A DNA stretch of 64,000 nucleotides from Gammaproteobacteria bacterium (GTDB lineage Bacteria > Pseudomonadota > Gammaproteobacteria > Ga0077536). The position numbers and the translations under genes were made by a program. Location: the NCBI GenBank assembly GCA_965216305.1, contig OZ244144.1, forward strand, positions 2,036,248 to 2,100,247, in the 5' to 3' direction. The notes under the pieces were generated by a model. The model was given only the letters and a program-made list of their open reading frames with translations, ran no database searches and had not been told where the DNA came from. Positions 13,920 through 58,616 of the stretch are shown piece by piece. The number at the start of each line of letters is the position of its first letter. Within the stretch, counting starts at the first letter, position 1.

Positions 13920-14582
13920 TCAGGAGGCTTGACCACCCCGACGACCAACAGTGACGAGCGCCGTGATTGCCGCACCCATCATCCAGATGGCGGGCGGAAT
14001 CGGAATCGCGGACAGACCTACCGTCAGCGTCGCTGAGGTCTTTTCGATCTGCGCCGTTTGCCCGGCACCGAAAGCGAACGCGAACAGGCTGTTCGTGATG
14101 TTTACGTCGATCGATTCCTTGTTGTCGATGGCAATCGGCAGCACCGAAATCGTCCACGCATTCGGCAGCGTGTTCGGCTGGAACACCTGGGTCAGGAAGT
14201 TAGATGGCGTGCCGTCCGCAACAATCGAGCCCGACGCCATGGCGACGCCGTTCGTCGTTTCGCCCTGACCCATTTCGGAGTAGCTGAGCGAGGTGATGCG
14301 GAATCCCGTAGGTGCCGTCAGCGTCATAAACAGTGTATCGACCGCCGACTGCGTCAGTCCGCTGGAACCGTCCGCCAGGAAGTTGTCGAGACCAAGCTGT
14401 ATTTCCACATCGCCGCCAACGTCCGACTGCGTGACCCCTGCGATGTCAAACAGTGACGAATTTCCGTTACCGTCTGCCAGATTCGAGATTGTGACCGACG
14501 CGGCGTTAGCCGTCGCGAACCCGGTCGTTAAGAGCAGCACTGCGACTGCCTTTCCAATTCCCTTTAAAAAGTTTCTGTCCAT
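13920..14582 (-). CDS. Secreted protein with C-terminal PEP-CTERM-like (VPLPA-type variant) exosortase sorting signal.
   Basis: Signal peptide MDRNFLKGIGKAVAVLLLTTGFATANA, followed by a Ser/Thr/Gly/Asn-rich domain. C-terminus is IPIPPAIWMMGAAITALVTVGRRGGQAS: a Pro motif, a hydrophobic helix and an Arg cluster. GGAGGG RBS. Strong terminator downstream. Confidence 0.6.
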   Translation of the reverse strand: MDRNFLKGIGKAVAVLLLTTGFATANAASVTISNLADGNGNSSLFDIAGVTQSDVGGDVEIQLGLDNFLADGSSGLTQSAVDTLFMTLTAPTGFRITSLSYSEMGQGETTNGVAMASGSIVADGTPSNFLTQVFQPNTLPNAWTISVLPIAIDNKESIDVNITNSLFAFAFGAGQTAQIEKTSATLTVGLSAIPIPPAIWMMGAAITALVTVGRRGGQAS

Positions 14583-14929
14583 TCTCTTTAACCCTCCAAT
14601 GGGTTGTGAAGTCCTTTGCCTTTAGTCCGGGAGCTCGTGTCACGCGCCCCGAGCGTGTTTTATGTTGTCGAACACAATATTGGACGATTGTTACGACATT
14701 GTGAACTGCGTTCGTTAAATTTGGTGAACTATTACGCAAAACGCTTGGCAATGTTTTGGTACGCGCCGGATGCGCAGGCAAATGCTGCCGGCGGAAAGGG
14801 ATTATAACAATAAAAACATAAATTTAATGTGGGTTTTCAGGGCGTTTGCGGCGGCCCGGGCAGGTTCTCTCACCAGGCGGCGAATGCGCGCGGGAGGCCT
14901 GAAACGCGCGCCTGGCGCCGGATCCGAGC

Positions 14930-31491: not shown

Positions 31492-32385
31492 ATGTACGAA
31501 TCGTTCTTCGGTTTCACGGAAGCGCCGTTCAGTTTGAACCCTGATCCGGGGTTCCTGTACCTCGGGCGGGATCACAGCAAAGCCCTGAGCATGTTGGAAT
31601 TCGGCCTTGCGTCGGAATCCGGGATCACTGTCATTACTGGCGCAATTGGTTCAGGGAAAACTACGCTAGTACGTCAGTTGCTCAATGCCATGCCGTCCGA
31701 CCGCACCGTGGGACTCATCAGCAACACCCATAAGTCGTTCGGCGAGCTGATTCACTGGATTTCCCTTGCCTTTGATCTTGAGCATGAGGGCCGGGACAAG
31801 GTCTCGCTGTACAACCAGTTTGTGAAATTTATGATCGAGGAATACAGCCGTGGAAAACGCGTTGTCTTAATTGTCGATGAAGCGCAAAACCTCGACGCAG
31901 AAACAATTGAAGAACTGCGCGTGATTTCGAACATCAACGCTGACAAAGACCTCGTGCTACAGCTGGTCCTAGTAGGCCAGCCGGAGCTAAAGGAAATATT
32001 GAGCGGTGCGAACCTGGTCCAGTTCGTTCAGCGAATTTCCGCGTATTATCATTTGAAGCCGTTAACACGTGAAGAGACGCACAACTACATAAAACATCGC
32101 GTCGGTGTTGCGGGGCCCCGGCGTAATCCGTTTCGGAAAAAGGCTATGGACATGATCTTCGAGGCTGCCGGTGGCGTGCCGAGGTTGATCAACACTTTTT
32201 GTCATTTAGGACTGACATATTGTTTCGCCGAGGGGCGTAAGACTGTGAACGAAGACATCATGCGGGAGATTGTTAGCGATCGCGAAGAGCATAGCTTGTT
32301 CGAGAGCAAGGCGGCTTCGCAAACTGATGTCGACGAACGTGGGCTGCACCACTTGGCTGTAACACCATTAGAGAAAATACTATGA
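31492..32385 (+). CDS. PEP-CTERM/XrtA-locus secretion ATPase (GspA/ExeA-like AAA ATPase).
   Basis: 297 aa with Walker A GAIGSGKTT and Walker B VLIVDEAQNL. GspA-like architecture characteristic of the first gene of exosortase-A EPS loci. Confidence 0.75.
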   Translation: MYESFFGFTEAPFSLNPDPGFLYLGRDHSKALSMLEFGLASESGITVITGAIGSGKTTLVRQLLNAMPSDRTVGLISNTHKSFGELIHWISLAFDLEHEGRDKVSLYNQFVKFMIEEYSRGKRVVLIVDEAQNLDAETIEELRVISNINADKDLVLQLVLVGQPELKEILSGANLVQFVQRISAYYHLKPLTREETHNYIKHRVGVAGPRRNPFRKKAMDMIFEAAGGVPRLINTFCHLGLTYCFAEGRKTVNEDIMREIVSDREEHSLFESKAASQTDVDERGLHHLAVTPLEKIL

Positions 32386-32948
32386 ATCGACGCATTACAG
32401 TTTTGCCTATCTTCTTGTACGCGCTTTTGGGTGCAATGGCACCTCCAACCGCATACTCAGATTCATCCGACTACAAGATCAAGGCAGCGGATTTGTTGCT
32501 TGTTTCTGTGTGGAAGGAAGAAGACTTGCAACTCGAAACCATAGTGCGCCCAGACGGTAAATTCTCATTCCCCCTCGCCGGCGAAATTCGAGCTCAGGGA
32601 CGGACGATAAGTGAGGTCCAAGAATCCGTGACCGAAGCGATTAAACAATACATCCCCGATCCGGTTGTTACGGTGATATTACGCCAAAGTCTGGGTAATC
32701 GAGTTTTCGTGTTAGGGCAGGTAAATCGGCCGGGCGAATTTCCGCTAAGCCAAGACATGGATGTATTGCAGGCGCTTGCTCTTGGTGGCGGGCTTGCGAC
32801 ATTCGCCGATAGGAAAGACATCAAAATCCTAAGGCGAACCGAGAACGGGCAATCGTCAATCCCCTTTAACTATAAGAGTGCTATTAACGGCAGCGATCTT
32901 GGGCAGAATATTTTATTGGAACCAGGCGATATCGTCGTCGTGCCTTAG
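32382..32948 (+). CDS. Periplasmic polysaccharide export protein (Wza-like Poly_export/SLBB, PEP-CTERM-locus EpsE-like).
   Basis: 188 aa with signal peptide. Poly_export motif (Y.I..GD.L.V.V....L......V..DG.I..P..G.I...G.T..E) followed by one SLBB-like segment. ATGA overlap with the upstream gene. Confidence 0.8.
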   Translation: MNRRITVLPIFLYALLGAMAPPTAYSDSSDYKIKAADLLLVSVWKEEDLQLETIVRPDGKFSFPLAGEIRAQGRTISEVQESVTEAIKQYIPDPVVTVILRQSLGNRVFVLGQVNRPGEFPLSQDMDVLQALALGGGLATFADRKDIKILRRTENGQSSIPFNYKSAINGSDLGQNILLEPGDIVVVP

Positions 32949-32983
32949 CCGCTGAGCGATCGGATCGTCCAGATACGTTTCTA

Positions 32984-34201
32984 GTGAAAAACCCAGCGCT
33001 TATCGTCGTGATGATGCTTTCCGCGAGCATCCCAGCGCGTGCGGATTTTTCCGTTCGCCCGTTCGTGTCTGAGGAACTTTTAGTTAATGACAACAGGAGA
33101 GTTCGCGCAGCAGGCGGCCCTACAGTAATAGGATCTTTATCCACGGCCCAACTCGCGCTTAACTACTCCCGACCGACTTGGTTCGCGACGGCGATCCCGC
33201 GCGCGAAAATTTCAAGGTTTACTGAAGACTCTTCACTAAATAGCGAAGATTATCTTCTAATAGGAGCGACCGAAAAACGCTTTGAGTACCTAACAATCGC
33301 GCTGAATACACAGGCTAGCAGTGTGTCAGCTCTAACCACGGAATTGGCGGATATCGGTCTCGTCTTAGAAAACAAACAGCAGAATAGATTCAGTATTTCG
33401 CCTAGGGTGACGTATTTTGCAACTCCGACCTTGCAACTTGGTTTCTCGCTCAATTACGTAGATGTTGAGTTCCAAAACGCCGAAAATACCGCATTAATCG
33501 ACTATTCCAGCTATTCCTTCGGCCCTGACGTACAGTACCAATTTAGTGAGAATATCAGCTTCAATAGCAACTTCTCGGTTTCTGAATTCAAAACCCCGGA
33601 CACGCAAAGAAAGACGTTCAGTAAGTCCGTTAACGTAGGGGCTACGTATCGGTACTCCGAGAAGTTATTCGTGTCAGCGTCTCTCGGAGGGCGTTTTAAT
33701 AATATCGAGCAAGGGTTTCAAGCACTCGTCCCGAATCCTGATTTCCCAAACGGACCGGTTTTTGTCATTCAGGATCTCAAACAGGAAGACACGACGAAAG
33801 GGATCCTCGCGAACGTCCTGGTCGAAAGGACTATCGAGCGAGGTACCGTTTCCGCGTCGTATTCGCGCTTTGTATCGCCGGCGAGTATTGGTATTCAGCA
33901 GGTCAACGAAGAGTGGGGGCTGAATTTTGAATATGAGATGTCTCCTCGATGGACTAGCGAAATGGAATTTGAGTTCGCAAATCTCAAGGCCGATGGCGAC
34001 GATAGAACAGACCAGAATGAGCGAATACGGTTACGTCTAAAAACCGTCTACGCGTTCAGCCGTAACTGGTATTTTGACGCGGGATATACATTACGTCGGG
34101 TGAAATTTATGAGCGGCGGAACCCAGAGCAGCGGCAGCAAAGCAAAATCTAACGAAGTTTTCATTGCGCTTCGATATCAAGGCGATAATCTGCGCTTTTG
34201 A
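32984..34201 (+). CDS. Predicted outer-membrane beta-barrel protein of the EPS locus (EpsL-like).
   Basis: Signal peptide then alternating amphipathic beta-strand pattern. Aromatic-rich, with C-terminal ...NLRF (terminal Phe typical of OMPs). Conserved position between exporter and chain-length determinant. Confidence 0.55.
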   Translation: MKNPALIVVMMLSASIPARADFSVRPFVSEELLVNDNRRVRAAGGPTVIGSLSTAQLALNYSRPTWFATAIPRAKISRFTEDSSLNSEDYLLIGATEKRFEYLTIALNTQASSVSALTTELADIGLVLENKQQNRFSISPRVTYFATPTLQLGFSLNYVDVEFQNAENTALIDYSSYSFGPDVQYQFSENISFNSNFSVSEFKTPDTQRKTFSKSVNVGATYRYSEKLFVSASLGGRFNNIEQGFQALVPNPDFPNGPVFVIQDLKQEDTTKGILANVLVERTIERGTVSASYSRFVSPASIGIQQVNEEWGLNFEYEMSPRWTSEMEFEFANLKADGDDRTDQNERIRLRLKTVYAFSRNWYFDAGYTLRRVKFMSGGTQSSGSKAKSNEVFIALRYQGDNLRF

Positions 34202-35988
34202 GTTTTACGCCTGCGGAAAAACTTTCCCTTTACAAGAATATGAGTGATTTGGACCGGGTAATGGAAACGCTACAAACTGAAATGACCTTTCGAGATGCGG
34301 TAGACAAGCTCGGCCGTAGGTACCGGATGCTGGTTGCGGTAGTCATTTCGCTGATGCTGCTTACGTTCGCAATCGCCGTATTGCTACCTTCAATCTATCG
34401 AAGTCAGGCGACAATATTAATCGAACAGCAGGAAATTCCAGCTGAATTAGTTCGTTCAACGGTAACGAGTTTCGCAAGCCAGCGCATTCAAACTATCAGT
34501 CAACGCGTAATGACCTCGAGCAATCTTTCCGAAATAATCGAGAAATACGGTCTTTACGAAGAAGAACGCCGCCGAGATCCGCTCGAAGTTATCATCGATG
34601 GGATGCGTCGGAGTATCGTCCTTGAAATGATCAGTGCAGACGTCGTCGATCCACGAAGTGGTCGACCAACAGAGGCAACGATTGCATTCCAGTTGTCTTA
34701 CGATAGTGAATCTCCTGTCTTGGCGCAAAAAGTTACGAACGAACTAGTGTCTCTTTATCTCAATGAGAATCTTAAGTCGCGCCAGGCGTCTGCGACCGAA
34801 ACCTCCTCCTTTCTGGCCGATGAGTCATCTCGATTAGCGTCACGTCTCGCGGAACTAGAGCAGGAAATATCGACCTTCAAACAGGAGAACCTGGAAAAGC
34901 TACCCCAGTTGGAAGGCATTAATAGAGAGTTAATGAACCGAGCGGACCTTGAGATTACTGACATCGACCGGCGCCTCGACGTTGCCACCCAGCAAGAAAT
35001 TTACTTAAGTGCTCAGCTGTCAGAACTGCAACCTCATCAGGTGATTTTTGTCGGAGGAAGTATCAGTCCGGCAGAGCGGTTGCGTAGTATGGAAACGGAG
35101 TTGACCGCAGCAGAAGCTTCTTATGGTGACTCGCACCCGGACGTCCGTAAATTACGCGCCCAAGTCGAAGCAGTGCGAGCAGACGTCGAGCCGTCGGAAG
35201 CCCGCAATATCTACAGCGTGAAATTGGAAGCGGCGAAGCGGGAGCTTGCTGAATTATTGGAACGCTACAATCCAGATCATCCGGACGTCGCGAAAAGCCG
35301 GAAAAAGGTCGAAAATTTAGAATTGAAATATTTGTCGCTGGCCGGTAAAGAAGACGACAAACCGAATAATCCGGCCTACATAAACATACTCGCTCGTTTG
35401 GATGCAACGAAGGCGGAAATCAGAACGCTGCGTGCCCAGCGAGAAAAAATAAATAATAAGCGTGACGAAATGACGCAGCGCTTGATAGAAACTCCTCTGA
35501 TCGAACAACAATACAAAGGAATAATACGGGAATACGATAATACGCTGCTTAAGTACCAGGAAATTACAGCGAAACAAATGGAAGCTCAGTTGTCGGAGAA
35601 TCTTGAGACTGAACGCAAAGGCGAAAAATTCACGCTAATCGAACCGCCATTGCTCCCGGAAGCCCCCTCTGAACCAAATCGAATGGCGATACTTCTAATA
35701 GGATTAATCGTCTCAATCGGATCTGGCGTTGGATCGGTTTTTGCCGCAGAGGGACTTGACAATAAAGTCCGAGGAAGAAACGCCGTTCAAGAAATATTTT
35801 CGGTGCCCCCGCTGGCAATTATTCCCGATATGTCTCGGCTGGATCACCGTGCGAGGAACGGCAAGCTAGTTGTTAGTCTTGTTTTGACCGCAGTGGTGCT
35901 TGGCGCCATGACGCTTGCCGCCATTCATGTATTTATGATGCCGTTGGATGTGTTTTGGTACGTTTTAATGAGAAAGCTATCGCTCTAG
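34198..35988 (+). CDS. Polysaccharide chain-length determinant protein (Wzz/GumC-like, PEP-CTERM-locus subfamily).
   Basis: N-terminal TM (MLVAVVISLMLLTFAIAVLL). Long coiled-coil periplasmic domain. C-terminal TM (MAILLIGLIVSIGSGVG). Probable true start is ATG 34240; 34198 is a TTG overlapping the upstream stop. Confidence 0.8.
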   Translation: MSFTPAEKLSLYKNMSDLDRVMETLQTEMTFRDAVDKLGRRYRMLVAVVISLMLLTFAIAVLLPSIYRSQATILIEQQEIPAELVRSTVTSFASQRIQTISQRVMTSSNLSEIIEKYGLYEEERRRDPLEVIIDGMRRSIVLEMISADVVDPRSGRPTEATIAFQLSYDSESPVLAQKVTNELVSLYLNENLKSRQASATETSSFLADESSRLASRLAELEQEISTFKQENLEKLPQLEGINRELMNRADLEITDIDRRLDVATQQEIYLSAQLSELQPHQVIFVGGSISPAERLRSMETELTAAEASYGDSHPDVRKLRAQVEAVRADVEPSEARNIYSVKLEAAKRELAELLERYNPDHPDVAKSRKKVENLELKYLSLAGKEDDKPNNPAYINILARLDATKAEIRTLRAQREKINNKRDEMTQRLIETPLIEQQYKGIIREYDNTLLKYQEITAKQMEAQLSENLETERKGEKFTLIEPPLLPEAPSEPNRMAILLIGLIVSIGSGVGSVFAAEGLDNKVRGRNAVQEIFSVPPLAIIPDMSRLDHRARNGKLVVSLVLTAVVLGAMTLAAIHVFMMPLDVFWYVLMRKLSL

Positions 35989-36004
35989 AACAGTGGACAC
36001 TTAA

Positions 36005-36826
36005 ATGGAACGAATCAAACAAGCTTTGGAACGAGCTAAAAGCGAGAACAAGCAAAAGCCCAGTTTTCGCGGCCAGCAACCGGCGGCGAGTGATGCTAAT
36101 GCAGGCTCGGTCAGCGCGTTCAATGAGAAAGTGCAATATTCTGACACTGCGGTTATTGAAATTGACAAAAAGCTCCTAAAGAAAAACTATATTCTGCCCG
36201 AGACAAATGGAGATGAAGCAGCAACGGCATATAAAATCCTAAGGACGCAGATTGAACATCGCCTCACCGCTAATGGGTGGAATACCCTGGCAATTACAAG
36301 TCCGGGTTTAGATCAGGGCAAAACGCTGACAGCGATTAATTTGTCGATCGCGTTAGCACGGGAGGTCCACCGTACGGTTCTTTTGGTGGATCTGGATTTC
36401 CGCAACCCAAGTATTCATCGTCGACTTGGTCTCAACGTGACCCAAGGCGTTACTGACTATCTCCTTGACGATGTGCCATTGAGCGACCTTCTAATAAACC
36501 CTGGGATTGATCGACTCGTAATTCTACCGACTACTAGAACGATCGCGAACTCGTCTGAGTTGCTGTCGTCGCCGAGAATGATAAACCTCGTTGAGGAACT
36601 GAAATCCCGTTACCCCTCGAGAATAATCGTTTTTGACCTCCCGCCGATATTGATGGCAGACGATGCATTGGCATTTTGCCCTGCGGTGGACTCAACGTTA
36701 CTGGTGATTGAGGAAGGCGCCAATACTAAGGATCAGCTTGTCCGCTGCACCGAAATACTTGGTTCAATCAAACTGATCGGGACCGTACTTAACAAGGCGG
36801 AAGAACGTCAGCCAACATATTACTGA
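36005..36826 (+). CDS. BY-kinase-like ATPase (exopolysaccharide tyrosine autokinase, cytoplasmic partner of the chain-length determinant).
   Basis: MinD/ParA-type deviant Walker A ITSPGLDQGKTLTAINLS. Walker B VLLVDLDFR. C-terminal Tyr pair ...QPTYY. Confidence 0.75.
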   Translation: MERIKQALERAKSENKQKPSFRGQQPAASDANAGSVSAFNEKVQYSDTAVIEIDKKLLKKNYILPETNGDEAATAYKILRTQIEHRLTANGWNTLAITSPGLDQGKTLTAINLSIALAREVHRTVLLVDLDFRNPSIHRRLGLNVTQGVTDYLLDDVPLSDLLINPGIDRLVILPTTRTIANSSELLSSPRMINLVEELKSRYPSRIIVFDLPPILMADDALAFCPAVDSTLLVIEEGANTKDQLVRCTEILGSIKLIGTVLNKAEERQPTYY

Positions 36827-37113
36827 CGCGATCGAAATCGCAAACTTCGCGGATGGCGGCGCAGAAACCGCATTCGGTATTTAGCAGGAAGAAACGGCAG
36901 CTTACTTGAACATTCGACGGAATCCGGAGTGGCTTTGGTGTTGCTCTTGGCTACGAGCCCTGCCTGGTTACGCTCGATTCCACGTAACTTGCGCTTGTTC
37001 CAAGCGAATAACGTCTGTTGAGAAACCAAATGCATTCGCACCGTTGCGCTATCTACCGAAGAACAGTGCATGTGAAGCTATTCCATGACCGAGTGTAATT
37101 TGAGCGTTTATTT

Positions 37114-38244
37114 ATGAAATCCAAACGATCAGAGCTGCAAGGGAAAATCAAGCTTATGCTCGTTGCGGGCGCGCGGCCGAACTTCATGAAGATTGCACCT
37201 ATTATTAGGGCAATCGAAAAGAGTAAGGATTCATTCGATTATCAGCTAGTGCATACCGGGCAGCATTACGATGAAAAAATGAGCGGCGTGTTTTTCCGGG
37301 GGCTAGGTATACCGGAACCGGATCACAATTTAAACGTTGGCAGCGGAACACACGCTCAACAGACTGCCGCGATCATGATGGCGTTCGAGCCTGTACTTCA
37401 AGCTTACAATCCGGATTACGTACTTGTCGTCGGAGATGTGAACTCAACTCTTGCGTGTTCAATTGTGGCCAAAAAATTGGGCACGAAAGTGGCACATGTC
37501 GAGGCCGGCCTTCGAAGTGGCGACATGAATATGCCCGAGGAGATAAATCGTCTAGTAACTGATTCAATAAGCGATCAATTTTTTGTTACCGAAGAAAGCG
37601 GGATGGAGCATCTGCGCCGGGAGGGTAAATCCGAATCGGCTATTCACCACGTTGGCCATGTGATGATAGACAATCTGCTCTATGAGGTCGCTAAGCTGGA
37701 TAAGCGCGGTTACCAATCGATTCCGCTACTCGACCAGTTGCCGTCAAACGCCCAATACGGCGTAGTAACCCTGCATCGCCCGTCGAATGTTGATGATCAG
37801 AAGGTCCTGGCGCGTATTTTGGAAGCGTTGATTTCAATCAGCAAACGAATCCCGCTCATATTTCCGATTCATCCCCGTACCCGTGCAAATCTTGAGCAAT
37901 TCCAATTAGCCATTCCGCCTGAGATTGTTCTTACGGAACCGCTTCAATACGACGAGTTTTTGCAAGTCTGGCGTGGCGCGACGATCGTTTTAACGGACAG
38001 TGGTGGCTTGCAAGAAGAAACTACCGCTTTAGGCGTCCCGTGCCTCACACTTCGCGAAAACACTGAGCGACCTATAACGGTGGCTGAAGGTTCCAACAAG
38101 ATCGTTGGCACAGACCCTGAGGTGATTGTAAGAGCAGCACTCGCGATCATTGATGGGCCACCTGTTCGTGTACGAAAGCGACCAAAGCTCTGGGACGGCA
38201 AGTCCTCAGAACGAATTTTGCACCTTCTATCTGAGTCTTTGTAG
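37114..38244 (+). CDS. wecB: UDP-N-acetylglucosamine 2-epimerase (non-hydrolysing).
   Basis: Full-length WecB/MnaA-family sequence (…TGQHYD…, HVEAGLRS, …DSGGLQEE…). 376 aa. Confidence 0.9.
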   Translation: MKSKRSELQGKIKLMLVAGARPNFMKIAPIIRAIEKSKDSFDYQLVHTGQHYDEKMSGVFFRGLGIPEPDHNLNVGSGTHAQQTAAIMMAFEPVLQAYNPDYVLVVGDVNSTLACSIVAKKLGTKVAHVEAGLRSGDMNMPEEINRLVTDSISDQFFVTEESGMEHLRREGKSESAIHHVGHVMIDNLLYEVAKLDKRGYQSIPLLDQLPSNAQYGVVTLHRPSNVDDQKVLARILEALISISKRIPLIFPIHPRTRANLEQFQLAIPPEIVLTEPLQYDEFLQVWRGATIVLTDSGGLQEETTALGVPCLTLRENTERPITVAEGSNKIVGTDPEVIVRAALAIIDGPPVRVRKRPKLWDGKSSERILHLLSESL

Positions 38245-38248
38245 AGAA

Positions 38249-39544
38249 ATGCCCGCTGTTACGACCAAAGTAATTGTGGCAATCCTGTTCCTTGTTTTCG
38301 CAGGTGACGGCATAGCCTGGAGCGACATCCATCCTGAGGACTATGGTGCAATAGGTGACGGAATATCTGATGACAGCCGAGCGCTGCAGAGGGCACTCAA
38401 ATTATGCTCAAACAGAGGTGCGGTTTGTAGATTATCTCCCAACAAATCCTATCGAGTTACCCGGCCAATATTTATATGGGGGCAGGCCGACTTAATCGGC
38501 GAGGCTGGAAGTAGCACGCTGATTTTTGATGTTGATGAGGCTCCGTATCTGTTCAACGTAGGTATTAGCGGCAAGAACAATTTGAAACCTCCGTTTTCGG
38601 GATTGATACAAGGGGTAACCTTCAGGATTGTCAGCGGGAAGCGTGGGCGACTCATCTATTTTTGGAGGACTGACGGTGCTCGAGTTCTTGGAAACACATT
38701 TGATCTCGGCTCCTTTGAATATTCTGCAACGTCGTCCGGGAACAATAACAATTGGGTTCGAAACGGTTTTAAAGGATGCGTCCGTAAGAATATCGAGATT
38801 TCCCGCAATACGGTTATCGCATCAGCCGACGCCAAGGGTAACGAAGGAATTGGACTTTCAAACTTTGAGGGCGTATTGATTCGAGAGAACTCCATTCACG
38901 GTGTAGGAGATGACCCGATTGGGATCCATTTCTCTAAGGATGTGCTGATTACGAATAACGCACTAACTAGCGTCGATGGACGGATATTTGTAGGTAATTC
39001 GCGAAATGTTCGCGTTTCTGCCAATTCGCATTCGCGAATTGCGTCTCCGAAGGATCGAAAGTTTCGCAAGGGAATCGGTTTGATTTATATAGGATTCGAG
39101 AAATTTACTAAGCACGAGCACATGGCACCGACTGATATTGTGGTTTCAGAGAATCGCCTGACGTATCCGAAGGGGGCGATTGATGGAGGTGCAGCAATCT
39201 ATCTTTACGCCCCGCGCGGCGCGAAGATCACGGACAACGTAATTATCAATGATTCGCCTAAGGTGAAAGCATCAGCGGTGCACTTGCTGCCGATAGAATT
39301 CAAGCAGGGTTGGAATGATCCGGATCACATCGACTCCGGAAAGACTGCGAAAGTTGGCTCAGTAGAAATTAGCGGCAACTCTAGTCTTGGTAAATATCCA
39401 CTGCGATTTCTGATGACTGGGAATTGCGAGGATTATCGGGGGCCAGTTAGAGTCGCGAATAATGTGGCGCCGCGCTTTCAGTTCTATTGTGCCGGAGTGA
39501 CGCAACAAGATAATACGAGTACCGATCGCGGCGTTCTGCGTTAG
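38249..39544 (+). CDS. Secreted right-handed parallel beta-helix protein (pectate-lyase-superfamily fold; putative EPS glycanase or epimerase).
   Basis: Start trimmed to ATG 38249, just after the wecB stop. Signal peptide MPAVTTKVIVAILFLVFAGDGIAWS. N-terminal motif EDYGAIGDGISDDSRALQRAL typical of the Pectate_lyase_3/beta-helix family. Repeated Asn/Gly-rich beta-helix coils. Confidence 0.65.
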   Translation: MPAVTTKVIVAILFLVFAGDGIAWSDIHPEDYGAIGDGISDDSRALQRALKLCSNRGAVCRLSPNKSYRVTRPIFIWGQADLIGEAGSSTLIFDVDEAPYLFNVGISGKNNLKPPFSGLIQGVTFRIVSGKRGRLIYFWRTDGARVLGNTFDLGSFEYSATSSGNNNNWVRNGFKGCVRKNIEISRNTVIASADAKGNEGIGLSNFEGVLIRENSIHGVGDDPIGIHFSKDVLITNNALTSVDGRIFVGNSRNVRVSANSHSRIASPKDRKFRKGIGLIYIGFEKFTKHEHMAPTDIVVSENRLTYPKGAIDGGAAIYLYAPRGAKITDNVIINDSPKVKASAVHLLPIEFKQGWNDPDHIDSGKTAKVGSVEISGNSSLGKYPLRFLMTGNCEDYRGPVRVANNVAPRFQFYCAGVTQQDNTSTDRGVLR

Positions 39545-39568
39545 GTTTTCTGTTTCAAGATTACACCG

Positions 39569-40816
39569 GTGTTTTCGTTTAAAAAGCTGGTCCCGAATTT
39601 GTCGGTCAGTTACCTCTCAAGCGTGTTGGGTTTCGTAACGATCCTTTTTGTTGCAAGGTGTCTCGGCGCGGAAAATTTCGGTGTGTTTGCTTTTGGAATC
39701 GCTATCGGCGGTTTCCTGATGCCACTGTTGAATCTGGGCAGTGATCGCGCTTTTGTGAAGGATGCGGTTAATGCGCCATCGAAACAAGACGTATTCCGAC
39801 TTGCCAGGGTAAACCGGAATATTCGGACCTTCGCGGCATTGATAATCGCTTCACTCTTGCTACTTGGGTTGTCTGTATACGACCCATACCCGGGGGCGCT
39901 CTTATCCGTATTTTGCGTCGGCCTATGGGCCGCGCTCATGGGGCTCTATCCCGCTGCGTGGTATGACTACTCGGGACAAACGTACAAGCAAAATCTGATA
40001 GTGCTGGGCGAAAGGGTGACAGCGATAGTTGCCGTATTCATGCTGGCAGAACTGTATACTGGTCATCGACTCCAGGCTGCTATTTCTGCCGGACTTTTGT
40101 TTATTCGACTCGGGTTCATCTTAGCGCAGGTAGTACTCTGGCGCCGTATGGAGGGGGATCCCGGTTCCGCAGAAGGTAATATGTTTCCGCGCTTCCATTC
40201 CGAGGGAATCAACCTCCCTGTGACAGTCGCGATATTCTCAAACGCACTGTTAACGTACGGTAATCAATTGTTTCTAAACTCCCGGGGTGAAACTGAGATT
40301 GCTGCGTACGGGTTGGCGTTTCAGTTGCTGAGTCCGATATTTCTTTTTCACGGCCAAGCATTGCGCCTGTTCCAACGACAGATAGCGCATGCCTGCCAAT
40401 CCGGCACTGAGATTCTTGCGTCTGTGTTCAAATCAGCGGCAACCTTGGCCGGCGGCGCCCTGATGCTAGCCGTGCTAATTGCAGTTCTGATGCGCTTTAT
40501 TCCGAGCCTGTTAGCTGATGACAGATTTAGCGCGATGTCCGATTATTCACCAATACTAATGACGTGGTCCGTCTTTCTCGGAGTAGGAATCGTCGTAACG
40601 CAACATCTAATCGCCTTAGGAGAAGAGAAATTCTTCGTAACGGTCGCATTACTCGGAGGACTCGTCGCCATTCTGGCAGGCATGTGGTTTATTCCGCGGC
40701 ATGGCGGTATCGCGGTGGCGCTAATTCTTTTGTGTGTACATTTGGTGATGATTTCGACAAACGGCATTCGCCTCTATGTTGTTGCGTCATCGTCGGCCCG
40801 TTCACGTGTCTCCTAA
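39569..40816 (+). CDS. Wzx-like oligosaccharide flippase (polysaccharide biosynthesis protein, MOP superfamily).
   Basis: 415 aa with about 12 predicted TM helices and a GTG start. Typical polysaccharide-transporter hydropathy profile. Position in the EPS locus next to a Wzy-like gene. Confidence 0.65.
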   Translation: MFSFKKLVPNLSVSYLSSVLGFVTILFVARCLGAENFGVFAFGIAIGGFLMPLLNLGSDRAFVKDAVNAPSKQDVFRLARVNRNIRTFAALIIASLLLLGLSVYDPYPGALLSVFCVGLWAALMGLYPAAWYDYSGQTYKQNLIVLGERVTAIVAVFMLAELYTGHRLQAAISAGLLFIRLGFILAQVVLWRRMEGDPGSAEGNMFPRFHSEGINLPVTVAIFSNALLTYGNQLFLNSRGETEIAAYGLAFQLLSPIFLFHGQALRLFQRQIAHACQSGTEILASVFKSAATLAGGALMLAVLIAVLMRFIPSLLADDRFSAMSDYSPILMTWSVFLGVGIVVTQHLIALGEEKFFVTVALLGGLVAILAGMWFIPRHGGIAVALILLCVHLVMISTNGIRLYVVASSSARSRVS

Positions 40817-40861
40817 CTGCACCCTCGAGGGGCCTTGAGACCGTAATTACCAAGAGCGAAG

Positions 40862-42244
40862 TTGAAGGCGACTGTACAAATGCGCATTGACTATCACCAA
40901 ATCTCAAGGAACTTGAGTCTTATCTGCTGGGCAGGGTGGTCGCTGTATTCAATTTATTTACTATCTGCCGCAAATTCGAGATCCGACTTATTTTTGACCT
41001 ACTTGCTTTATCTGATGTTGAGCGGGTTCATGGTGTGGATTTCTAGGAAGGATCTGCTTTCCCCCATAGGATTGTTTACGCTAGCCGGGTTCATGGCGTT
41101 CGGATCTAACATTCCCTTCATAAATGCCGATAGTTATTTCGGATTTGGCATCAGCGAGAAAACCCTTACTAAAGTACTTGTTCTATTTTTAGTAGCGTAC
41201 AGTGCGTTCATATTGGGTACGGTTAGCCGGGTAAATCGCATTTTTCCATTCAAGCGCTTGATTGGGTCAGATCATGGCAGCTTGTCTGCCTCGATTCCCA
41301 TTTATGGTCTCTTGCTAGGAATGGTTTTGGTGGCGGGCTTCATCAGGGCTAAATATCACCTTGGCGAGGCAGGTATTCAGCCAGCCATCAGGTATGCCGG
41401 TTATTTTCAGTACTTACTCTATGATGGCTTGTTAGTATTTTGCGGGTGGTTTCTGGCCTCATCCATTAGGCGCGGAACGGTTTTTATCCTTCTTGCTTTA
41501 TCGCTTCTTGTTAGCTTGGCGATTGTGCAAGCGTATCTCGGTTGGCGAGGAGGGATCTTCCAAGTATTTATATTGGCAGTAGGTATATTTTGGTATCAAA
41601 GCTCCAACAGCCGGACCGTCTCGAGCGCTTCTATGAATTGGGTGCTGATATTAGTCGTGCTCGCAGGAACAATTACAAACTTGGGTAATCAGGTGAGGTC
41701 TGAGCGCTTGGGCGGGCAGCGTACGTTTGCGGAGAATAGGGTTGAGTTCGCCGAGAAGGTCGTAGTGAGGACGCAAGGAACCTCTCGGTTGGCCGCGGTT
41801 GTGAATCATTTCGGAGATTTGACGTGGGTGAACAATTACAAAATTGTTGAACTCTACAAGTCCGGTACCACGTCAACTGTTTACGTTGATAGAGCTATTC
41901 ATGGCGTCGGTAAGAACCAGTCTCACAGTGTCGGTGCGTCAGGACCTGGAGGGCCCTATGTGGCACTTGGGATGCTTGGGATTTTCGGCGCGTACTACTT
42001 CCTCGGCGTGTTTTATCGGGGTTGTTACGAGACGATATTGGCATCGCGTAATAAGGTGTTCGCCACAGTTCTTTACTCCTATTTAATGTACGTTCTGTTC
42101 CAGCTGTTGTCTGGAAATTTTGGCTTGAATTCTGTTAAAAAAATTGGTGCGGTACTCGCACTCACCGTCGTCCTCAAACTGATTGTGAGTCGGCTCGGGG
42201 TTAGCGACGCACCGCAATCCCTGAGGTTGTTCAGAAAGCCATGA
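40862..42244 (+). CDS. Wzy-like polysaccharide polymerase (O-antigen ligase/polymerase-type membrane protein).
   Basis: 460 aa polytopic membrane protein with a large hydrophilic loop (residues ~270-340) between TM blocks. Low sequence conservation is expected for Wzy. Confidence 0.5.
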   Translation: MKATVQMRIDYHQISRNLSLICWAGWSLYSIYLLSAANSRSDLFLTYLLYLMLSGFMVWISRKDLLSPIGLFTLAGFMAFGSNIPFINADSYFGFGISEKTLTKVLVLFLVAYSAFILGTVSRVNRIFPFKRLIGSDHGSLSASIPIYGLLLGMVLVAGFIRAKYHLGEAGIQPAIRYAGYFQYLLYDGLLVFCGWFLASSIRRGTVFILLALSLLVSLAIVQAYLGWRGGIFQVFILAVGIFWYQSSNSRTVSSASMNWVLILVVLAGTITNLGNQVRSERLGGQRTFAENRVEFAEKVVVRTQGTSRLAAVVNHFGDLTWVNNYKIVELYKSGTTSTVYVDRAIHGVGKNQSHSVGASGPGGPYVALGMLGIFGAYYFLGVFYRGCYETILASRNKVFATVLYSYLMYVLFQLLSGNFGLNSVKKIGAVLALTVVLKLIVSRLGVSDAPQSLRLFRKP

Positions 42245-42298
42245 ACCGGATCACTCAAGCAAATACCAAAGCCGAATTCCCTTCTTTTGGCTAGCACA

Positions 42299-42826
42299 AT
42301 GCGTAAATTGATATTTAGAGCTCGGCGCTTGTGGAAGATTCGCAATAACAGCTACCCGTCGTACGTACCAGCAACATCGTTTGTGCAAACGTCGTCATCG
42401 TTTGTCGAACCGGCAAAACTGTCCTTAGGCGAGCACGTTTACATTGGCGCCGAATGTTTTATTAATTGCAAAGGTGGCGTCGCAATTGGTGACGGTTGCA
42501 TGGTATCGGCGTACGTCGTGATCCTTTCTGAGGATCATGATTTTCGTGAGGTGGTCCGCATGCCCTTCAACCGCGGTATGCGGTTTGATCCTGTAACGAT
42601 CGAAGCTGGTGTCTGGCTTGGGATTCGATCGATGATTCTGCCTGGAACTATTATCGGGCAAGGTGCAATCGTCGCCGCAGGTTCGGTGGTAACAAAGAAC
42701 GTAGAGCAGGGCACCATCGTTGCAGGAAATCCCGCGAGGGTCGTAGGCAAGCGGATCGATGGCTGGCGTTCAGTCCTCGATGCCAAACAGTACTACCTCG
42801 CCGGGCATGCGTTAATTGGCGGATAG
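42299..42826 (+). CDS. Hexapeptide-repeat (left-handed beta-helix) acyl/acetyltransferase, probable polysaccharide O-acetyltransferase.
   Basis: LbH repeats (IGAECFINCKGGVAIGDGCMVSAYVVI...VWLGIRSMILPGTIIGQGAIVAAGSVV). Trimmed to ATG 42299. Similar to the WcaF/maltose-O-acetyltransferase type. Confidence 0.8.
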   Translation: MRKLIFRARRLWKIRNNSYPSYVPATSFVQTSSSFVEPAKLSLGEHVYIGAECFINCKGGVAIGDGCMVSAYVVILSEDHDFREVVRMPFNRGMRFDPVTIEAGVWLGIRSMILPGTIIGQGAIVAAGSVVTKNVEQGTIVAGNPARVVGKRIDGWRSVLDAKQYYLAGHALIGG

Positions 42827-42862
42827 CCGTATAGCCCGCAGATAGACCGGATGAATTGAGAA

Positions 42863-43825
42863 GTGGAGAAAGGACCGATATTTGTCGTTGGGCCGCCTCG
42901 TAGCGGCACGCACCTGATGCGTTATTGCTTGAGTCAGCATCCAAATGTCTATATTGGCCCAGAGTCTAACTTTTTCCAGGCGATCTATGGCAGCCGCACC
43001 GTCGTCCCAGATTCTCTAATTAAATCAAACAGCGGATTGATTCTGGAGATGCTGTTCGCCAGCGGCGACCCAAGCATGTCTGAATTTGAACCGAACAAAG
43101 ATGCGATCGAGAAATCGATCAAGATGCAGGCCAATAATTATCGAGAACTCTCCCGGATAATTTTTAGTAGTTTCGCAATTTACAAGCAGAAGCCACGATG
43201 GGGCGAGAAAACGCCGCTGCATCTATATTATCTGGATAAGCTGTTCGATTACTTCCCGAACGCAAGAGTCATTTGTATGCGGCGTGATCCGAAAAACATA
43301 ATCGCGTCCTACATAAAAAGTAGTCACATGCCTAATAGATTGTCATTCGCTATGGCTGAAGTCAGGCATTGCTGGAAAATTATGCAGCGTATTACTGACA
43401 AAAGATTACAAATCGTCGAGTACGAAGATCTGCTGGCAAACCCGTCCGCTACATTGCGAATGGTTTGTGATTTTTTGGATGAGGAATTTAAGGAGGCCAT
43501 GCTCAACCCAAAAATGCGGGATTCTTCATACAGTGGCGGGATCATGGAGTTCGACGAATCGATAAAAATCGAACAGGAACCCGGTGCAAACGAGAAATGG
43601 AAACGCGTATTGAGCGAAGAAGAGGCTCGCAGCGTCATGACATGGGTGAACGTGGGCGCGATATCGCTGTTTTCTCCCGAAGTTAGTTGGCTGCTAATTG
43701 GGCGCGCGATTATTGCGTCGTGGGTCTATCGTATGCGATTAATGAAGTCAAGAATGGGGCTTTTCCACTGGAAGCGCGTCGTGCAAGTAAGTCGGCGGCG
43801 CGCCGACTATCCGCAAGCGGATTAG
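42863..43825 (+). CDS. Sulfotransferase family protein (PAPS-dependent).
   Basis: 5'-PSB loop VVGPPRSGTHLM and 3'-PB motif RDPKNIIASY. About 320 aa, typical of the Sulfotransfer_3-like family. Hydrophobic C-terminal tail. Confidence 0.75.
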   Translation: MEKGPIFVVGPPRSGTHLMRYCLSQHPNVYIGPESNFFQAIYGSRTVVPDSLIKSNSGLILEMLFASGDPSMSEFEPNKDAIEKSIKMQANNYRELSRIIFSSFAIYKQKPRWGEKTPLHLYYLDKLFDYFPNARVICMRRDPKNIIASYIKSSHMPNRLSFAMAEVRHCWKIMQRITDKRLQIVEYEDLLANPSATLRMVCDFLDEEFKEAMLNPKMRDSSYSGGIMEFDESIKIEQEPGANEKWKRVLSEEEARSVMTWVNVGAISLFSPEVSWLLIGRAIIASWVYRMRLMKSRMGLFHWKRVVQVSRRRADYPQAD

Positions 43826-43858
43826 CAACCCCAGCACGATGAGGTGTAATTAACACAA

Positions 43859-45106
43859 GTGAATATCTTATTCGTTGTGAACGAGGTGCCCTATCCGCCG
43901 GATAACGGTGTAAAGATCGTCTCCTATAACGCCATGCGAATGATGAGCGAAGCTGGGCACAACGTTAGTATTTGTGTTCTGTGCGAAAAGAGCCCTTCAT
44001 CGATTTCGGATTACGAATCGCTGTGTTCGGAGTTTGGAATCGAAAACAGGTGTATCGAATTCACCGACGAAAGTAAGAAACTGAGAAATATCGTGCGTAC
44101 CGCGTTATGCGGCAAGCTATATTTCATTGAGCGGTTCCGATCACTGTCGTTTCGGGTTGCGCTGGAGGTCTTGGTTGCGAAGTTTGAACCCGATGTTATT
44201 CATTTTGATCTGATCACCTTGTGTCAATACTATGATGTAGCCCCGCTCGGCATCGGAACTGTTGCGTCAATAAACGATTGCTATTCGCTCAAACTTGAGA
44301 ACTCGCTGGCTGCCGGGAATTACTCCGGAGTTGAAGTGCCGTATCGAGTTTGGCAACTTCGGCGGTCCAGAAAGTACGAATCGCAGATGTATCCAAATTT
44401 CGACTTCGTTCATGTGATGAGCGAAGTCGACAGCGGGTACCTCGAAAAGCTAAACCCGAAGATCGAAACGAGAGTTATTCCGAATGGTGTCAGTGCCGAG
44501 TTGTTCAATTTGCCACAGGTGAATAGCGCAAATGTCACAGTACTATTCATTGCTCATCTGGCTGGTGATAATTTGGTGTACTTGGCGAACCTTCTAGACA
44601 AATGTTGGCCGGTTGTCGCTCGTGAATTTCCCCAAAGCGTGTTGCGAATCGTAGGCAAGATTCCAGAGTCTTCACGTCCGCTACAAACGAAATACGAAAA
44701 CGTTGAGGGTGTGCGATTCGCTGGCTACGCCGAGAATCTTGTGGACGCCTACGAAGGATGTGATATCGCAGTTGTTCCCATTAATAAGAGCGGCGGCATT
44801 CTGAATAAGGCTATTGAGGCCATGGCGGCAGGCCTTGCGGTCGTTGGCTTCGACAAATCCTTCGCCGGAATCGCCGGTGCGCGTAGTGGACAACATTACC
44901 TAACCGCTAAAGATTATGAGGGAATAGGAGAGGTCTTGATTGCACTGATTCGAGACCAGAATCGTCGGGACGAGATACGAGCGCAGGCGCGTAAATTTGC
45001 TCGCGATAATTTTTCCTGGAACCAGCGTGTTGAGGCTTACGAGTCGATGTATTGGCAAGCTGCACGACTGTCGATCGAGAAGCGCAGCGGACATGGATCA
45101 ACGTAG
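43859..45106 (+). CDS. Glycosyltransferase family 4 (GT-B, Glycos_transf_1).
   Basis: C-terminal GT4 signature (…EGCDIAVVPINKSGGILNKAIEAMAAGLAVVG…). GTG start. Confidence 0.8.
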   Translation: MNILFVVNEVPYPPDNGVKIVSYNAMRMMSEAGHNVSICVLCEKSPSSISDYESLCSEFGIENRCIEFTDESKKLRNIVRTALCGKLYFIERFRSLSFRVALEVLVAKFEPDVIHFDLITLCQYYDVAPLGIGTVASINDCYSLKLENSLAAGNYSGVEVPYRVWQLRRSRKYESQMYPNFDFVHVMSEVDSGYLEKLNPKIETRVIPNGVSAELFNLPQVNSANVTVLFIAHLAGDNLVYLANLLDKCWPVVAREFPQSVLRIVGKIPESSRPLQTKYENVEGVRFAGYAENLVDAYEGCDIAVVPINKSGGILNKAIEAMAAGLAVVGFDKSFAGIAGARSGQHYLTAKDYEGIGEVLIALIRDQNRRDEIRAQARKFARDNFSWNQRVEAYESMYWQAARLSIEKRSGHGST

Positions 45107-45896
45107 TCAATTTCGAATTCACCTTGAAGCCGCTAAGCGGTTATTCATGGTCAATGCCCTTTCTGGTGTACTACCGCTTTACATCGTTACGGAATATCCG
45201 AAATCTGGCGGAACCTGGATATCTCAGGTTCTTTCGGAATGTTTGGGTATCCCCTTTCCTCGAAACAGGCCACCAAAACTTGAATCCTGCCTAATGCACG
45301 GCCACATGACTTTTTCGCCACTTATGAAAAACGTTGTCGTTGTACAACGCGACGGCAGAGACGTGATGATATCGTGGTATTACCATATGTTGTTTCAGCA
45401 TGATCGAAATACGCAACATCTCGTAGAAAAGACGAGGCAACGCCTAGCATTCCCTGATTTTGAGGATATTGAGGAGAACTTACCGAAGTTTATTGAGTAT
45501 GTTTTCGAGTCGGAGCAGCGATCTCGAAGTCCATTTCATTTCACGTGGAGCCAGTTCGTTGACAGCTGGCACGACAAAGATGTCCCGAAAGTAAGTTATG
45601 AGGAAATGATTGAGGGGCCTGTCCGTGCTGTACAGAACGTGATAGGGCGACTGGGGGTAGATGAAGTTGACGCCGAAACCGTAGCGACGATAGTTGATAA
45701 GTATAGCTTTCAGGCGCAATCACAGCGTGCGCCAGGTCAGGAGGATAAATCTAGTTTTCTCCGGCGTGGAAAGCCCGGTGATTGGAAGAACAAGTTTAAC
45801 CGACGTGCGGCAGAAGTTTTCGATCAACTGGCAGGAACTCAATTGGTCCAACTTGGGTACGAGCCAGATACAAGTTGGGTTAGGAAGCTCCTGTGA
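45093..45896 (+). CDS. Sulfotransferase (Sulfotransfer_1-like, PAPS-dependent).
   Basis: Trimmed to ATG 45093, which overlaps the GT4 end by 14 nt. 5'-PSB motif EYPKSGGTWISQVL. C-terminal RRGKPGDWKNKF matches the canonical RKGxxGDWKNxF sulfotransferase motif. Confidence 0.8.
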   Translation: MDQRSQFRIHLEAAKRLFMVNALSGVLPLYIVTEYPKSGGTWISQVLSECLGIPFPRNRPPKLESCLMHGHMTFSPLMKNVVVVQRDGRDVMISWYYHMLFQHDRNTQHLVEKTRQRLAFPDFEDIEENLPKFIEYVFESEQRSRSPFHFTWSQFVDSWHDKDVPKVSYEEMIEGPVRAVQNVIGRLGVDEVDAETVATIVDKYSFQAQSQRAPGQEDKSSFLRRGKPGDWKNKFNRRAAEVFDQLAGTQLVQLGYEPDTSWVRKLL

Positions 45897-47059
45897 CGTC
45901 TGACGCGAACGGGTACGATTTCTTGCTTAATGGCGCGTCGATAGTCGTCGGTGGCGGCATTCAATCGTGCTCTGCATTCGTTAGATATTTGATCGCCCGC
46001 GGGATTAGTGAACGCTGCTTCTTCGTCGTTTCGGATGAAATACATCAGGAACTATTGAAGTTTGGTGTGGATATTGCCTCGATGGGCGGGGTAGTTACGA
46101 TTGATGCGCCCTCGAAGCATCTCGCGACGAGACGTTTGCTCGCGGACGTAGAGCGAAAGTGTAAACCTGCGGTGGTGTTCACGTTCTTCGGTCCGTCTTA
46201 TGTCAAGTTTCGAGCTAAGCATATATGCGGTGTGGCTGACGGGTGGGTGACGCACTCCACTCCTTTGGCGTTTAAAACACTCCGAGGTTGGTCAGCGAAA
46301 TTGCGTATGCTTGCCGCGCTAATCTACAAAGCATTCCATTTTCGAAGAGCGGACTACTGGATAGTAGAGCACGACTGTGCGAAGCAAGGCCTTATCCGTC
46401 GGCTGAGGCTGGCGCCTGGTAAAATATCGGTCGTGCCAAATAATTGTGCACCCCATTACGTCGCCTCGACTGAACGGACTGTGCTCTTGGAGGAAACAGC
46501 CAAGTGCCGAATTCTGGTATTCGGGGCTTACTATCCGAATAAGCGGTTAGAAATCATTCCCCTGGTTGCAAAGGCCTTAAGATCGCTCGATCAAGAATTC
46601 TCGTTTGAATTCATCATCACTGTTAAACCTGGTCTGCCTATTTGCGATGAACTTGCTACGAGCTTGAAAAGGATCGGACTGAATCACAGCTTCAAAAATA
46701 TCGGACCGATTCCATTACGAGACGGGCCGGCGCTATACAGGTCGTGCGACGTCGTGTTTCACCCTTCGGTATTGGAAACGTTTTCGGCGGTATACCCGGA
46801 AGCAATGGCGATGGCTGTACCGATCGTTACCAGTGATCTAGATTTCGCTCGATCGATTTGCGGAGAAGGGGCACTTTATTTCAATCCAAACGATCCTGGC
46901 GATGCGGCAAAGAAGATTCACGAAGTTCACACAAATGTGAATGCTCGAAAGCGACTAATCGAGCGAGCGAGAAAGCGCCAATCTGATATGCCTACCATTG
47001 ATCAGAACCACAAGTCACTCGTAGACATCATTAGCGGTATCGTGGACCGTCACTCCTAA
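45893..47059 (+). CDS. Glycosyltransferase family 4.
   Basis: 388 aa. GT4 E-x7-E region (ETFSAVYPEAMAMAVPIVTSD). Overlaps neighbours by 4 and 1 nt, suggesting translational coupling. Confidence 0.75.
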   Translation: MTSDANGYDFLLNGASIVVGGGIQSCSAFVRYLIARGISERCFFVVSDEIHQELLKFGVDIASMGGVVTIDAPSKHLATRRLLADVERKCKPAVVFTFFGPSYVKFRAKHICGVADGWVTHSTPLAFKTLRGWSAKLRMLAALIYKAFHFRRADYWIVEHDCAKQGLIRRLRLAPGKISVVPNNCAPHYVASTERTVLLEETAKCRILVFGAYYPNKRLEIIPLVAKALRSLDQEFSFEFIITVKPGLPICDELATSLKRIGLNHSFKNIGPIPLRDGPALYRSCDVVFHPSVLETFSAVYPEAMAMAVPIVTSDLDFARSICGEGALYFNPNDPGDAAKKIHEVHTNVNARKRLIERARKRQSDMPTIDQNHKSLVDIISGIVDRHS

Positions 47060-48621: not shown

Positions 48622-48624
48622 AAA

Positions 48625-48866
48625 AACTCTTAACGGTCTACGCACTGGGACCACGATCGTTGAGTATTTACCGCCGCTAATGCCGTTGCTCGGGCAATTA
48701 TAAAGTCGCATGAGCGTTACGGTTATCTCTGCGGGGTCGAAGCGAATGTTAATGGGTTTTGGGAAAGGCAACCGTATCGCAAAAGCACGGCAACAACCCG
48801 ACAAGGGGAGGCAGGTGATAACAAAGCTGCGCACCGACGGTATTGTTCCCGCGGTCGATCTGGTTC
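48625..48866 (+). pseudogene. Decayed duplicate of the first ~80 codons of the downstream bi-domain oxidoreductase gene (gene remnant / recombination scar).
   Basis: Translating 48625-48866 gives K T L N G L R T G T T I V E Y L P P L M P L L G Q L * S R M S V T V I S A G S K R M L M G F G K G N R I A K A R Q Q P D K G R Q V I T K L R T D G I V P A V D L V R F G *. This aligns colinearly with MKQVLQDLSSGQTIVEDVPEPMPAPGALLIRTSRTLISAGTEKMLIDFGKGNLISKAMQQPDKVKQVLDKVRTDGLGPTLQTVRSKLG of the gene starting at 48959. The remnant has internal stop codons. Confidence 0.75.
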
Positions 48867-48958
48867 GGTTCGGCTAAGGTGCCCTTGCACGTAAACCGAT
48901 TGCTCGGACTGGCGGGTCCGATTTTCGCTATTCTAATTGAACCGTAAGATTTTCATAA

Positions 48959-52770: not shown

Positions 52771-52904
52771 AGAGTGCGAACTACGTTCTAATACCCTTAT
52801 TTTTCATGCATTTGACATAGAAACTAAACTATACTCGGCCGCTCGAAATTTCATCGGCCGCATCATTTGAGTGCGGGTACGTAACGGCAATTGGCGCGGC
52901 ATTC

Positions 52905-55732: not shown

Positions 55733-55738
55733 ACATCC

Positions 55739-58609: not shown

Positions 58610-58616
58610 GCATACG

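Follow-up and report, generated by a model that had tools for sequence, protein, structure and literature searches.

The locus at positions 13920-14582 of the window, the 64,000-nucleotide stretch of gammaproteobacterial DNA analyzed here, raises the question of whether the small secreted protein that it encodes is the cargo of an exosortase and, if so, of which one. A sequence-only reading had described the protein as a putative exosortase substrate with a non-canonical sorting tail, and had assigned an exosortase gene 40 kb away to the XrtA type. To address the question, we combined protein family models, structure prediction and comparison with related loci, and we refer to the gene as the cargo gene throughout.

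Gene anatomy and the class of the sorting tail

Translation of the minus-strand ORF, which starts with ATG, yields a 220-aa product ending in ...SAIPIPPAIWMMGAAITALVTVGRRGGQAS, identical at its end to the C-terminus quoted in the sequence-only reading for a secreted protein of this length. The features of the gene and its surroundings are as follows.

13920..14582, minus strand: cargo gene (ORF and translation) for a secreted 220-aa protein that ends in a VPLPA-CTERM-type tail and whose family is unnamed
14502..14582, minus strand: Sec-type signal peptide (residues 1-27), predicted to be cleaved after A-N-A, with an AF2 helix at 3-24
14007..14501, minus strand: mature beta-sandwich domain, residues 28-192
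13923..14006, minus strand: sorting tail, residues 193-220, with the IPIPPA motif, the TM helix IWMMGAAITALVTVG, an RR pair and then GGQAS
14592..14597, minus strand: Shine-Dalgarno sequence GGAGGG, 9 nt upstream of the ATG and conserved in the relatives L121 and L123
14676..14730, minus strand: conserved upstream block, from a promoter scan and a three-way alignment with L123 and L121
13844..13875, minus strand: intrinsic terminator hairpin and U-run between the cargo gene and mlaF

On inspection of the sequence, the N-terminus, MDRNFLKGIGKAVAVLLLTTGFATANA followed by AS, displays a basic n-region, a hydrophobic core and the A-N-A cleavage site, and as the protein contains no Cys residue it is not a lipoprotein. 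The AF2 model, built from 21 sequences with a mean pLDDT of 84, places an all-beta domain (31-192) between two helices (3-24 and 197-219). This mature domain is acidic, with 15 D+E versus 3 K+R, and Ser and Thr together account for 23% of it.

The conserved upstream block carries AGTTCAC direct repeats at 14730-14724 and 14707-14701 of the minus strand, spaced 23 bp apart, the second of which overlaps a sigma-70-like promoter, TTCACA-18-AATATT, at 14705-14676. The block is conserved in both L123 and L121, the distal intergenic DNA is not alignable, and the repeats could mark a putative regulator-binding site; a third CTTCACA lies at 14611-14605, immediately upstream of the ribosome binding site. 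No match to the sigma-54 consensus was found upstream of the cargo gene, and an Rfam search for a riboswitch or leader there returned sub-threshold matches alone, overlapping the terminator. Downstream, the terminator at 13875-13844 reads AAAAAACCCCGG-TTCGC-CCGGGGTTTTTTTT (also written AAAAAACCCCGG-TTCGC-CCGGGGUUUUUUUU) and folds at -28 kcal/mol (z = -3.6), with none of 200 shuffles folding equally well; a consensus terminator scan made no call at this site because the T-run is absorbed into an A/U-extended stem. The monocistronic look of the gene, its good ribosome binding site and its strong terminator, all remarked on earlier, are borne out. The start of the neighboring mlaF is ambiguous, with a GTG at 13697 giving 273 aa and the public gene call on an identical Logan contig giving 229 aa, which puts 222-355 bp between mlaF and the cargo gene.

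The C-terminal tail, IPIPPAIWMMGAAITALVTVGRRGGQAS, has the three-part exosortase-type layout that had been proposed for it, with IPIPPA abutting the TM helix (AF2 helix 197-219), followed by an RR pair 5 residues from the stop. Its class is indicated by the family models. TIGR03370 (VPLPA-CTERM) matches residues 193-215 at 14.4 bits (E 0.029), which is below the curated cutoff of 25.35, and is the sole sorting-signal model matched by the cargo protein in the NCBIfam scan; TIGR02595 (PEP-CTERM) gives no match even at E<=10, and a Pfam scan places the protein in no family, PF07589 included. The tail therefore lies nearer to VPLPA-CTERM than to PEP-CTERM, as had been suggested.

Homologs place this weak score in context. 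The 20 close homologs of the cargo protein, none of them named, come from metagenomes and MAGs, and the tail is the best-conserved region of their alignment. The orthologs P0014, P0015 and P0020 pass the TIGR03370 cutoff (25.9, 30.6 and 26.0 bits), P0008 and P0010 score 25.1 bits each against the cutoff of 25.35, and the model is matched at E<=1 by 19 of the 21 family members; TIGR02595 is matched by one of the 21, at E 0.24. The canonical VPLPAAAW occupies the homologous position in P0008, P0010 and P0012, and P194 and P196 are invariant in 55 family members with a mean identity of 34%. At E<=1e-3, a profile search of 1.84 billion cluster representatives recovered relatives in at least 862 50%-identity clusters, of which almost all are 200-230 aa long, and 195 were recovered at E<=1e-10. 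A further profile search, aimed at named relatives, gave 'hypothetical protein' entries alone. Tails of the [VI]P.P[PAS] type occur in 138 of the 163 relatives inspected (~85%), VPLPPA being very common, and PEP tails in two of the 163; GGQAS after the RR pair is likewise conserved in the clade of the cargo protein. As [VI]P.P[PAS] tails are usual in the family, IPIPPA is an ordinary VPLPA-CTERM family variant and not a new signal. The description of the tail as non-canonical consequently does not hold, given that [VI]P[LI]PPA is common in the family and that an XrtD is encoded 40 kb away, for which such a tail is the expected cognate signal. Judged by its sequence, the tail is a divergent, sub-threshold variant of the already catalogued VPLPA-CTERM signal, an assignment made because orthologs pass the cutoff, the tail is conserved, and XrtD co-occurs with it. 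Neither Pfam nor NCBIfam has a model dedicated to the family, and such a model would improve annotation in many marine and sediment Gammaproteobacteria.

The tail also occurs well beyond this family. A degenerate DNA pattern encoding [IV]P[IL]P[PA]A.W[ML][MLF]G.A, run against reference genomes, matched at least 119 stretches with at least 120 matches. All 120 matches listed are protein C-termini in which a hydrophobic stretch and then a basic cluster come after the motif, the mature domain of the cargo is present in three of the matches listed, and the exact IPIPPAIWMMGAA variant is found in none of the 120 listed. Hosts among the matches listed are mostly Gammaproteobacteria (Halieaceae, Porticoccaceae, Chromatiaceae, Sedimenticolaceae and methanotrophs), and several genomes, such as Ca. 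Litorirhabdus singularis and a Sedimenticolaceae chromosome, have at least 2-4 tail matches. We regard the tail as a modular signal carried by otherwise unrelated proteins.

Several individual loci merit description. In a Pseudomonadales MAG (L125, 3802-6492; GCA_028039795.1), three consecutive genes bear sorting tails and encode a VPEP (PEP-CTERM) protein, P0012, in which VPLPAAAW is paired with a degenerate SKSR basic cluster, and a protein of 250 aa bearing VPIPTAAWLFGSAL...RRK; the trio is adjoined by two GH17 genes. VPLPA-type tails were also found in three MAGs labeled Klebsiella pneumoniae or Klebsiella sp. (L002, L060 and L061), of which L061 has a homolog of the cargo family; these are probably mislabeled or contaminated bins. 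Within the 64-kb window, six-frame ORFs of at least 60 aa were searched over their last 40 residues with a VPLPA/PEP tripartite pattern, and the cargo ORF alone fitted. The ORF at 25002-26189(-), the C-terminus of which (...PWPLGLALLLGAGAAWLLGRRMTT) combines a TM helix with RR and matched a looser tail expression, was considered as a second cargo and rejected, as its PWPLG...GRR end lacks a VPLPA or PEP motif and failed the stricter pattern. It falls where orthologous loci have BatD/VWA genes, and its tail is probably a plain anchor.

XrtD, its EPS locus and linkage to the cargo gene

If the tail is a sorting signal, the identity of the exosortase encoded in the same window becomes central. 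The relevant features are the following.

54158..55732, plus strand: XrtD exosortase with a fused EpsI domain, proposed here as the processing enzyme
31492..59564, plus strand: EPS biosynthesis locus around xrtD, from NCBIfam and Pfam scans

The enzyme at 54158-55732 scores 599.1 bits with TIGR04152, the model for the VPLPA-CTERM-specific exosortase XrtD (cutoff 400), and 206.4 bits with the XrtA model TIGR03109, just under its cutoff of 208. On these scores it is XrtD and not the XrtA that the sequence-only reading had named, the gene distance of 39.6 kb agreeing with the 40 kb given there. With XrtD as the nearby exosortase, the cargo tail becomes a cognate signal and not one mismatched to XrtA. 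The exosortase signature (TIGR04178) spans residues 184-278 and the EpsI domain (TIGR02914) residues 346-521, and C190, R235 and H256, within the signature region, are candidate catalytic residues; a Cys/Arg/His triad of exosortases is described in Haft's preprint. The literature that could be searched yielded no experiments on XrtD or VPLPA-CTERM.

The locus around xrtD encodes an ExeA-like ATPase, a Wza-like exporter, a chain-length determinant, a Tyr kinase, WecB and a flippase, together with an acetyltransferase, a sulfotransferase, GT4 glycosyltransferases, a heparinase-like protein, a WecA-like transferase and Gmd/Fcl. The ExeA-like ATPase, chain-length determinant and Tyr kinase match accessory models of the XrtA system at scores below the cutoffs. 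The upstream half of the locus (32000-48000) has a GC content of 0.48-0.50 versus 0.59-0.65 elsewhere in the window, which suggests that this half is a horizontally exchanged, possibly sulfated-polysaccharide island; the sulfotransferase gene lies within the low-GC part and the heparinase-like gene directly downstream, at 51100-52770.

Linkage of XrtD and cargo is observed in other lineages. A metagenome scan yielded 28 XrtD relatives, two of which, 88% and 84% identical, share contigs with the cargo orthologs P0017 and P0007, at distances of 37-43 kb.

MRWG01000107.1: XrtD at ~63.8-65.4 kb, cargo P0017 at ~26.3-26.9 kb
Ga0315336_1000101: XrtD at ~128.2-129.7 kb, cargo P0007 at ~171.9-172.6 kb

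Two further lineages with both genes on one contig indicate that the ~40-kb arrangement is conserved in the clade. At none of the 28 XrtD loci was a tail-bearing ORF found within 10 kb of XrtD, and no XrtD was found inside the tail loci among the 119 listed; as cargo and sortase are not adjacent, gene neighborhood lends no direct support beyond the 40-kb linkage in the clade. Exosortase systems usually have several cargo proteins, and here one tail is seen in 64 kb of a 5.85-Mb contig.

The immediate surroundings of the cargo gene are likewise conserved, as the order DUF1631/PacR-like - cargo - mlaFEDC is kept in seven other assemblies. The DUF1631 protein is a weak match to the PacR family (234 bits versus a cutoff of 1200). 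The wider block, on the 14930-21340 side of the window, comprises BatD/VWA genes, a response-regulator-PAS-GGDEF-EAL protein, XdhC, DUF1631, the cargo, mlaFEDC and IleRS, and is syntenic in all relatives (L121, L123 and L126-L130). The c-di-GMP enzyme two genes from the cargo could be relevant to matrix regulation.

A hypervariable mature domain between conserved ends

Comparison of the window with its relatives reveals an uneven distribution of divergence across the cargo gene. In the closest comparison, with L129, flanking proteins are 98-100% identical at the amino acid level (IleRS 99.7%, MlaE 100%), and the cargo is 82% identical overall, 78% in its mature domain and 90% in its tail. Relative to L123 and L126, flanking proteins are ~82-94% identical and the cargo 45%, the mature domain falling to 39% and the tail retaining 93% (28/30). 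A sliding DNA comparison with L129 gives ~99% identity except in two blocks, of which 13980-14460 covers the mature domain at 67-83% identity; the promoter-proximal region, signal peptide and tail remain at >=92%, the signal peptide at 93-97%. The second block, 14762-14940, is 62-77% identical with indels and lies in distal intergenic DNA just past the 3' end of DUF1631, where L121 has a 128-aa opposite-strand ORF.

Nei-Gojobori estimates of synonymous (dS) and nonsynonymous (dN) divergence from the window follow the same partition.

L129, mature domain: dS 0.876, dN 0.136
L129, signal peptide: dS 0.048, dN 0.016
L129, MlaE (flank): dS 0.045, dN 0
L123, mature domain: dS 2.476, dN 0.647
L123, tail: dS 1.080, dN 0.040
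L123, MlaE (flank): dS 0.778, dN 0.036

The dN of the tail, at 0.03-0.04, is close to that of MlaE (0.036), and that of the mature domain is 0.65; over all comparisons the tail dN is 0.00-0.05 in six of seven and reaches 0.19 against L121, the most distant lineage. Positive selection in situ was considered as the cause of this hypervariability and rejected, as omega for the mature domain is 0.07-0.35 across comparisons and never exceeds 1, and dS is hugely raised. The ~20-fold excess of dS relative to L129, coupled with an omega of 0.16, indicates that a divergent allele was imported by recombination and did not evolve rapidly in place. The mature center of the cargo is thus swapped by recombination between otherwise near-identical strains, in an allele replacement at the population level. 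Conserved termini around a recombining variable center are also the arrangement of flagellins and type IV pilins, and the conservation of export and sorting ends around a swapped center argues that the mature domain is exposed. Such strain-level swapping suggests an exposed and ecologically important protein, perhaps one that serves as a phage receptor or takes part in matrix interactions.

Proposed pathway, alternatives and known systems

We consider it likely, with a probability of about 0.72, that the cargo is a Sec-exported beta-sandwich protein processed by XrtD at IPIPPA, and an exposed component with a swapped center; cleavage, final location and selective agent are the parts that we infer. 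The acidic, Ser/Thr-rich protein would be exported via Sec and retained in the inner membrane by its C-terminal helix, where IPIPPA, abutting the helix, would be recognized by the XrtD of the EPS locus 40 kb away. If exosortase and archaeosortase systems are a guide, XrtD would then remove the helix and RR anchor, and the mature domain may be handed to the cell surface or the EPS matrix. The central part of the exposed domain would be exchanged between strains by homologous recombination, and we propose that the need to go on fitting Sec and XrtD keeps the signal peptide and sorting tail constant.

The C-terminal helix might instead be a permanent anchor, leaving an unprocessed, periplasm-facing, tail-anchored inner-membrane protein in which the Pro-rich stretch is a linker. 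Such a protein would be compatible with a cargo score under the TIGR03370 cutoff and with the lack of cargo-sortase adjacency at the 28 XrtD loci or among the 119 tail loci listed, and a role in the envelope could be suggested by the mlaFEDC lipid-transport operon, which adjoins the gene in conserved synteny. We nonetheless judge it improbable, since the P-x-P abutting the helix is invariant in a family of 34% mean identity, the same motif, helix and RR form the extreme C-terminus in every one of at least 117 unrelated proteins, orthologs pass TIGR03370 in a setting where the genome encodes a matching XrtD, and a terminator separates the cargo gene from mlaF. About equally small is the chance that the cargo belongs to another exosortase, XrtA or some other subtype, elsewhere in the 5.85-Mb genome. 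With the XrtD exception model, designated VPLPA-CTERM-specific in NCBIfam, the in-window enzyme reaches 599 bits, the tail has no TIGR02595 match, and XrtD is co-conserved on the cargo contig in two other lineages; on the other side, the sequence examined is 64 kb of the genome, the in-window enzyme is 1.6 bits below the XrtA cutoff, and two PEP-tailed family members and one relative beside a VPEP protein indicate that tail types and sortases can mix.

A more specific alternative is that the cargo is an ortholog of the flocculation protein PepA with the same role in floc formation, a small, signal-peptide-bearing PEP-CTERM protein that is required for flocs and the gene of which is RpoN-dependent (PMC9850573). 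The floc_PepA model (NF033554) is indeed the top NCBIfam match of the cargo, at 24.1 bits (E 2.7e-5), and is matched by 20 of the 21 family members. This score is far under the cutoff of 80, however, and the match disappears in all four family members for which mature-only sequences, with the tail removed, were searched, and is therefore driven by the tail and TM region. As the tail is of the VPLPA and not the VPEP type, and no sigma-54 promoter lies upstream of the cargo gene, homology to PepA was rejected and orthology appears very unlikely, more so than either of the preceding alternatives.

Under the preferred reading of an exposed, XrtD-processed protein, the locus offers a clean pairing of one XrtD in an EPS locus with one cargo that looks well expressed, in conserved linkage, and the pairing is suited to a direct test of cleavage and surface anchoring. 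A bolder and more doubtful extension is that, in a marine gammaproteobacterial clade, the DUF1631 - cargo - mlaF locus encodes the dominant surface protein anchored by XrtD and is at the same time a population-level antigenic-variation cassette driven by phages or grazers, in which the signal peptide and tail, besides being recognized by the machinery, may double as homology arms for exchange of the exposed beta-sandwich. If true, balancing or diversifying selection would have been shown for an exosortase cargo for the first time, and the locus would provide a natural handle on XrtD function.

Comparison with known systems clarifies which parts of the locus are shared. Flagellins and type IV pilins resemble the cargo in their conserved export and assembly ends around a variable center, which in the cargo has a ~20-fold higher dS than its neighbors. 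In contrast, the cargo fold and secretion route are unrelated to theirs, and at the cargo population-level allele replacement alone is seen, with no evidence of silent cassettes or programmed variation. In structural terms, Bd1399 of Bdellovibrio bacteriovorus (PDB 8OKH) is a DUF4360-like elongated beta-sandwich with 10% identity to the cargo, but has two conserved disulfides where the cargo has no Cys, and lacks a sorting tail. The other structural matches are to jelly rolls of a generic kind (lectin, CBM, TNF and capsid folds), and the cargo fold therefore gives no specific function.

The PEP-CTERM/XrtA systems, including PepA of Zoogloea and Aquincola (NF033554; PMC9850573), share with this locus a small secreted protein with a C-terminal sorting signal, an exosortase within an EPS locus with an ExeA-like ATPase, a chain-length determinant and a Tyr kinase, and a presumed matrix or surface role. 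They differ in that the cargo has neither a PEP motif nor a TIGR02595 match and that the exosortase and accessory genes fall below the XrtA-system cutoffs; for PepA itself, homology of the mature domain to the cargo is unsupported and its sigma-54 promoter has no counterpart at the cargo gene. The VPLPA-CTERM/XrtD system (TIGR03370/TIGR04152) provides the comparison with an extreme C-terminal [VI]P[LI]P[AP]A motif abutting a TM helix and an Arg pair, an N-terminal signal peptide, an XrtD in an EPS locus of the same genome, and orthologs that pass the model. The cargo departs from it in the details of the signal, IPIPPA...WMMGAA versus the canonical VPLPAAAWLL (14.4 bits, cutoff 25.35), and its clade conserves GGQAS after the RR pair as well.
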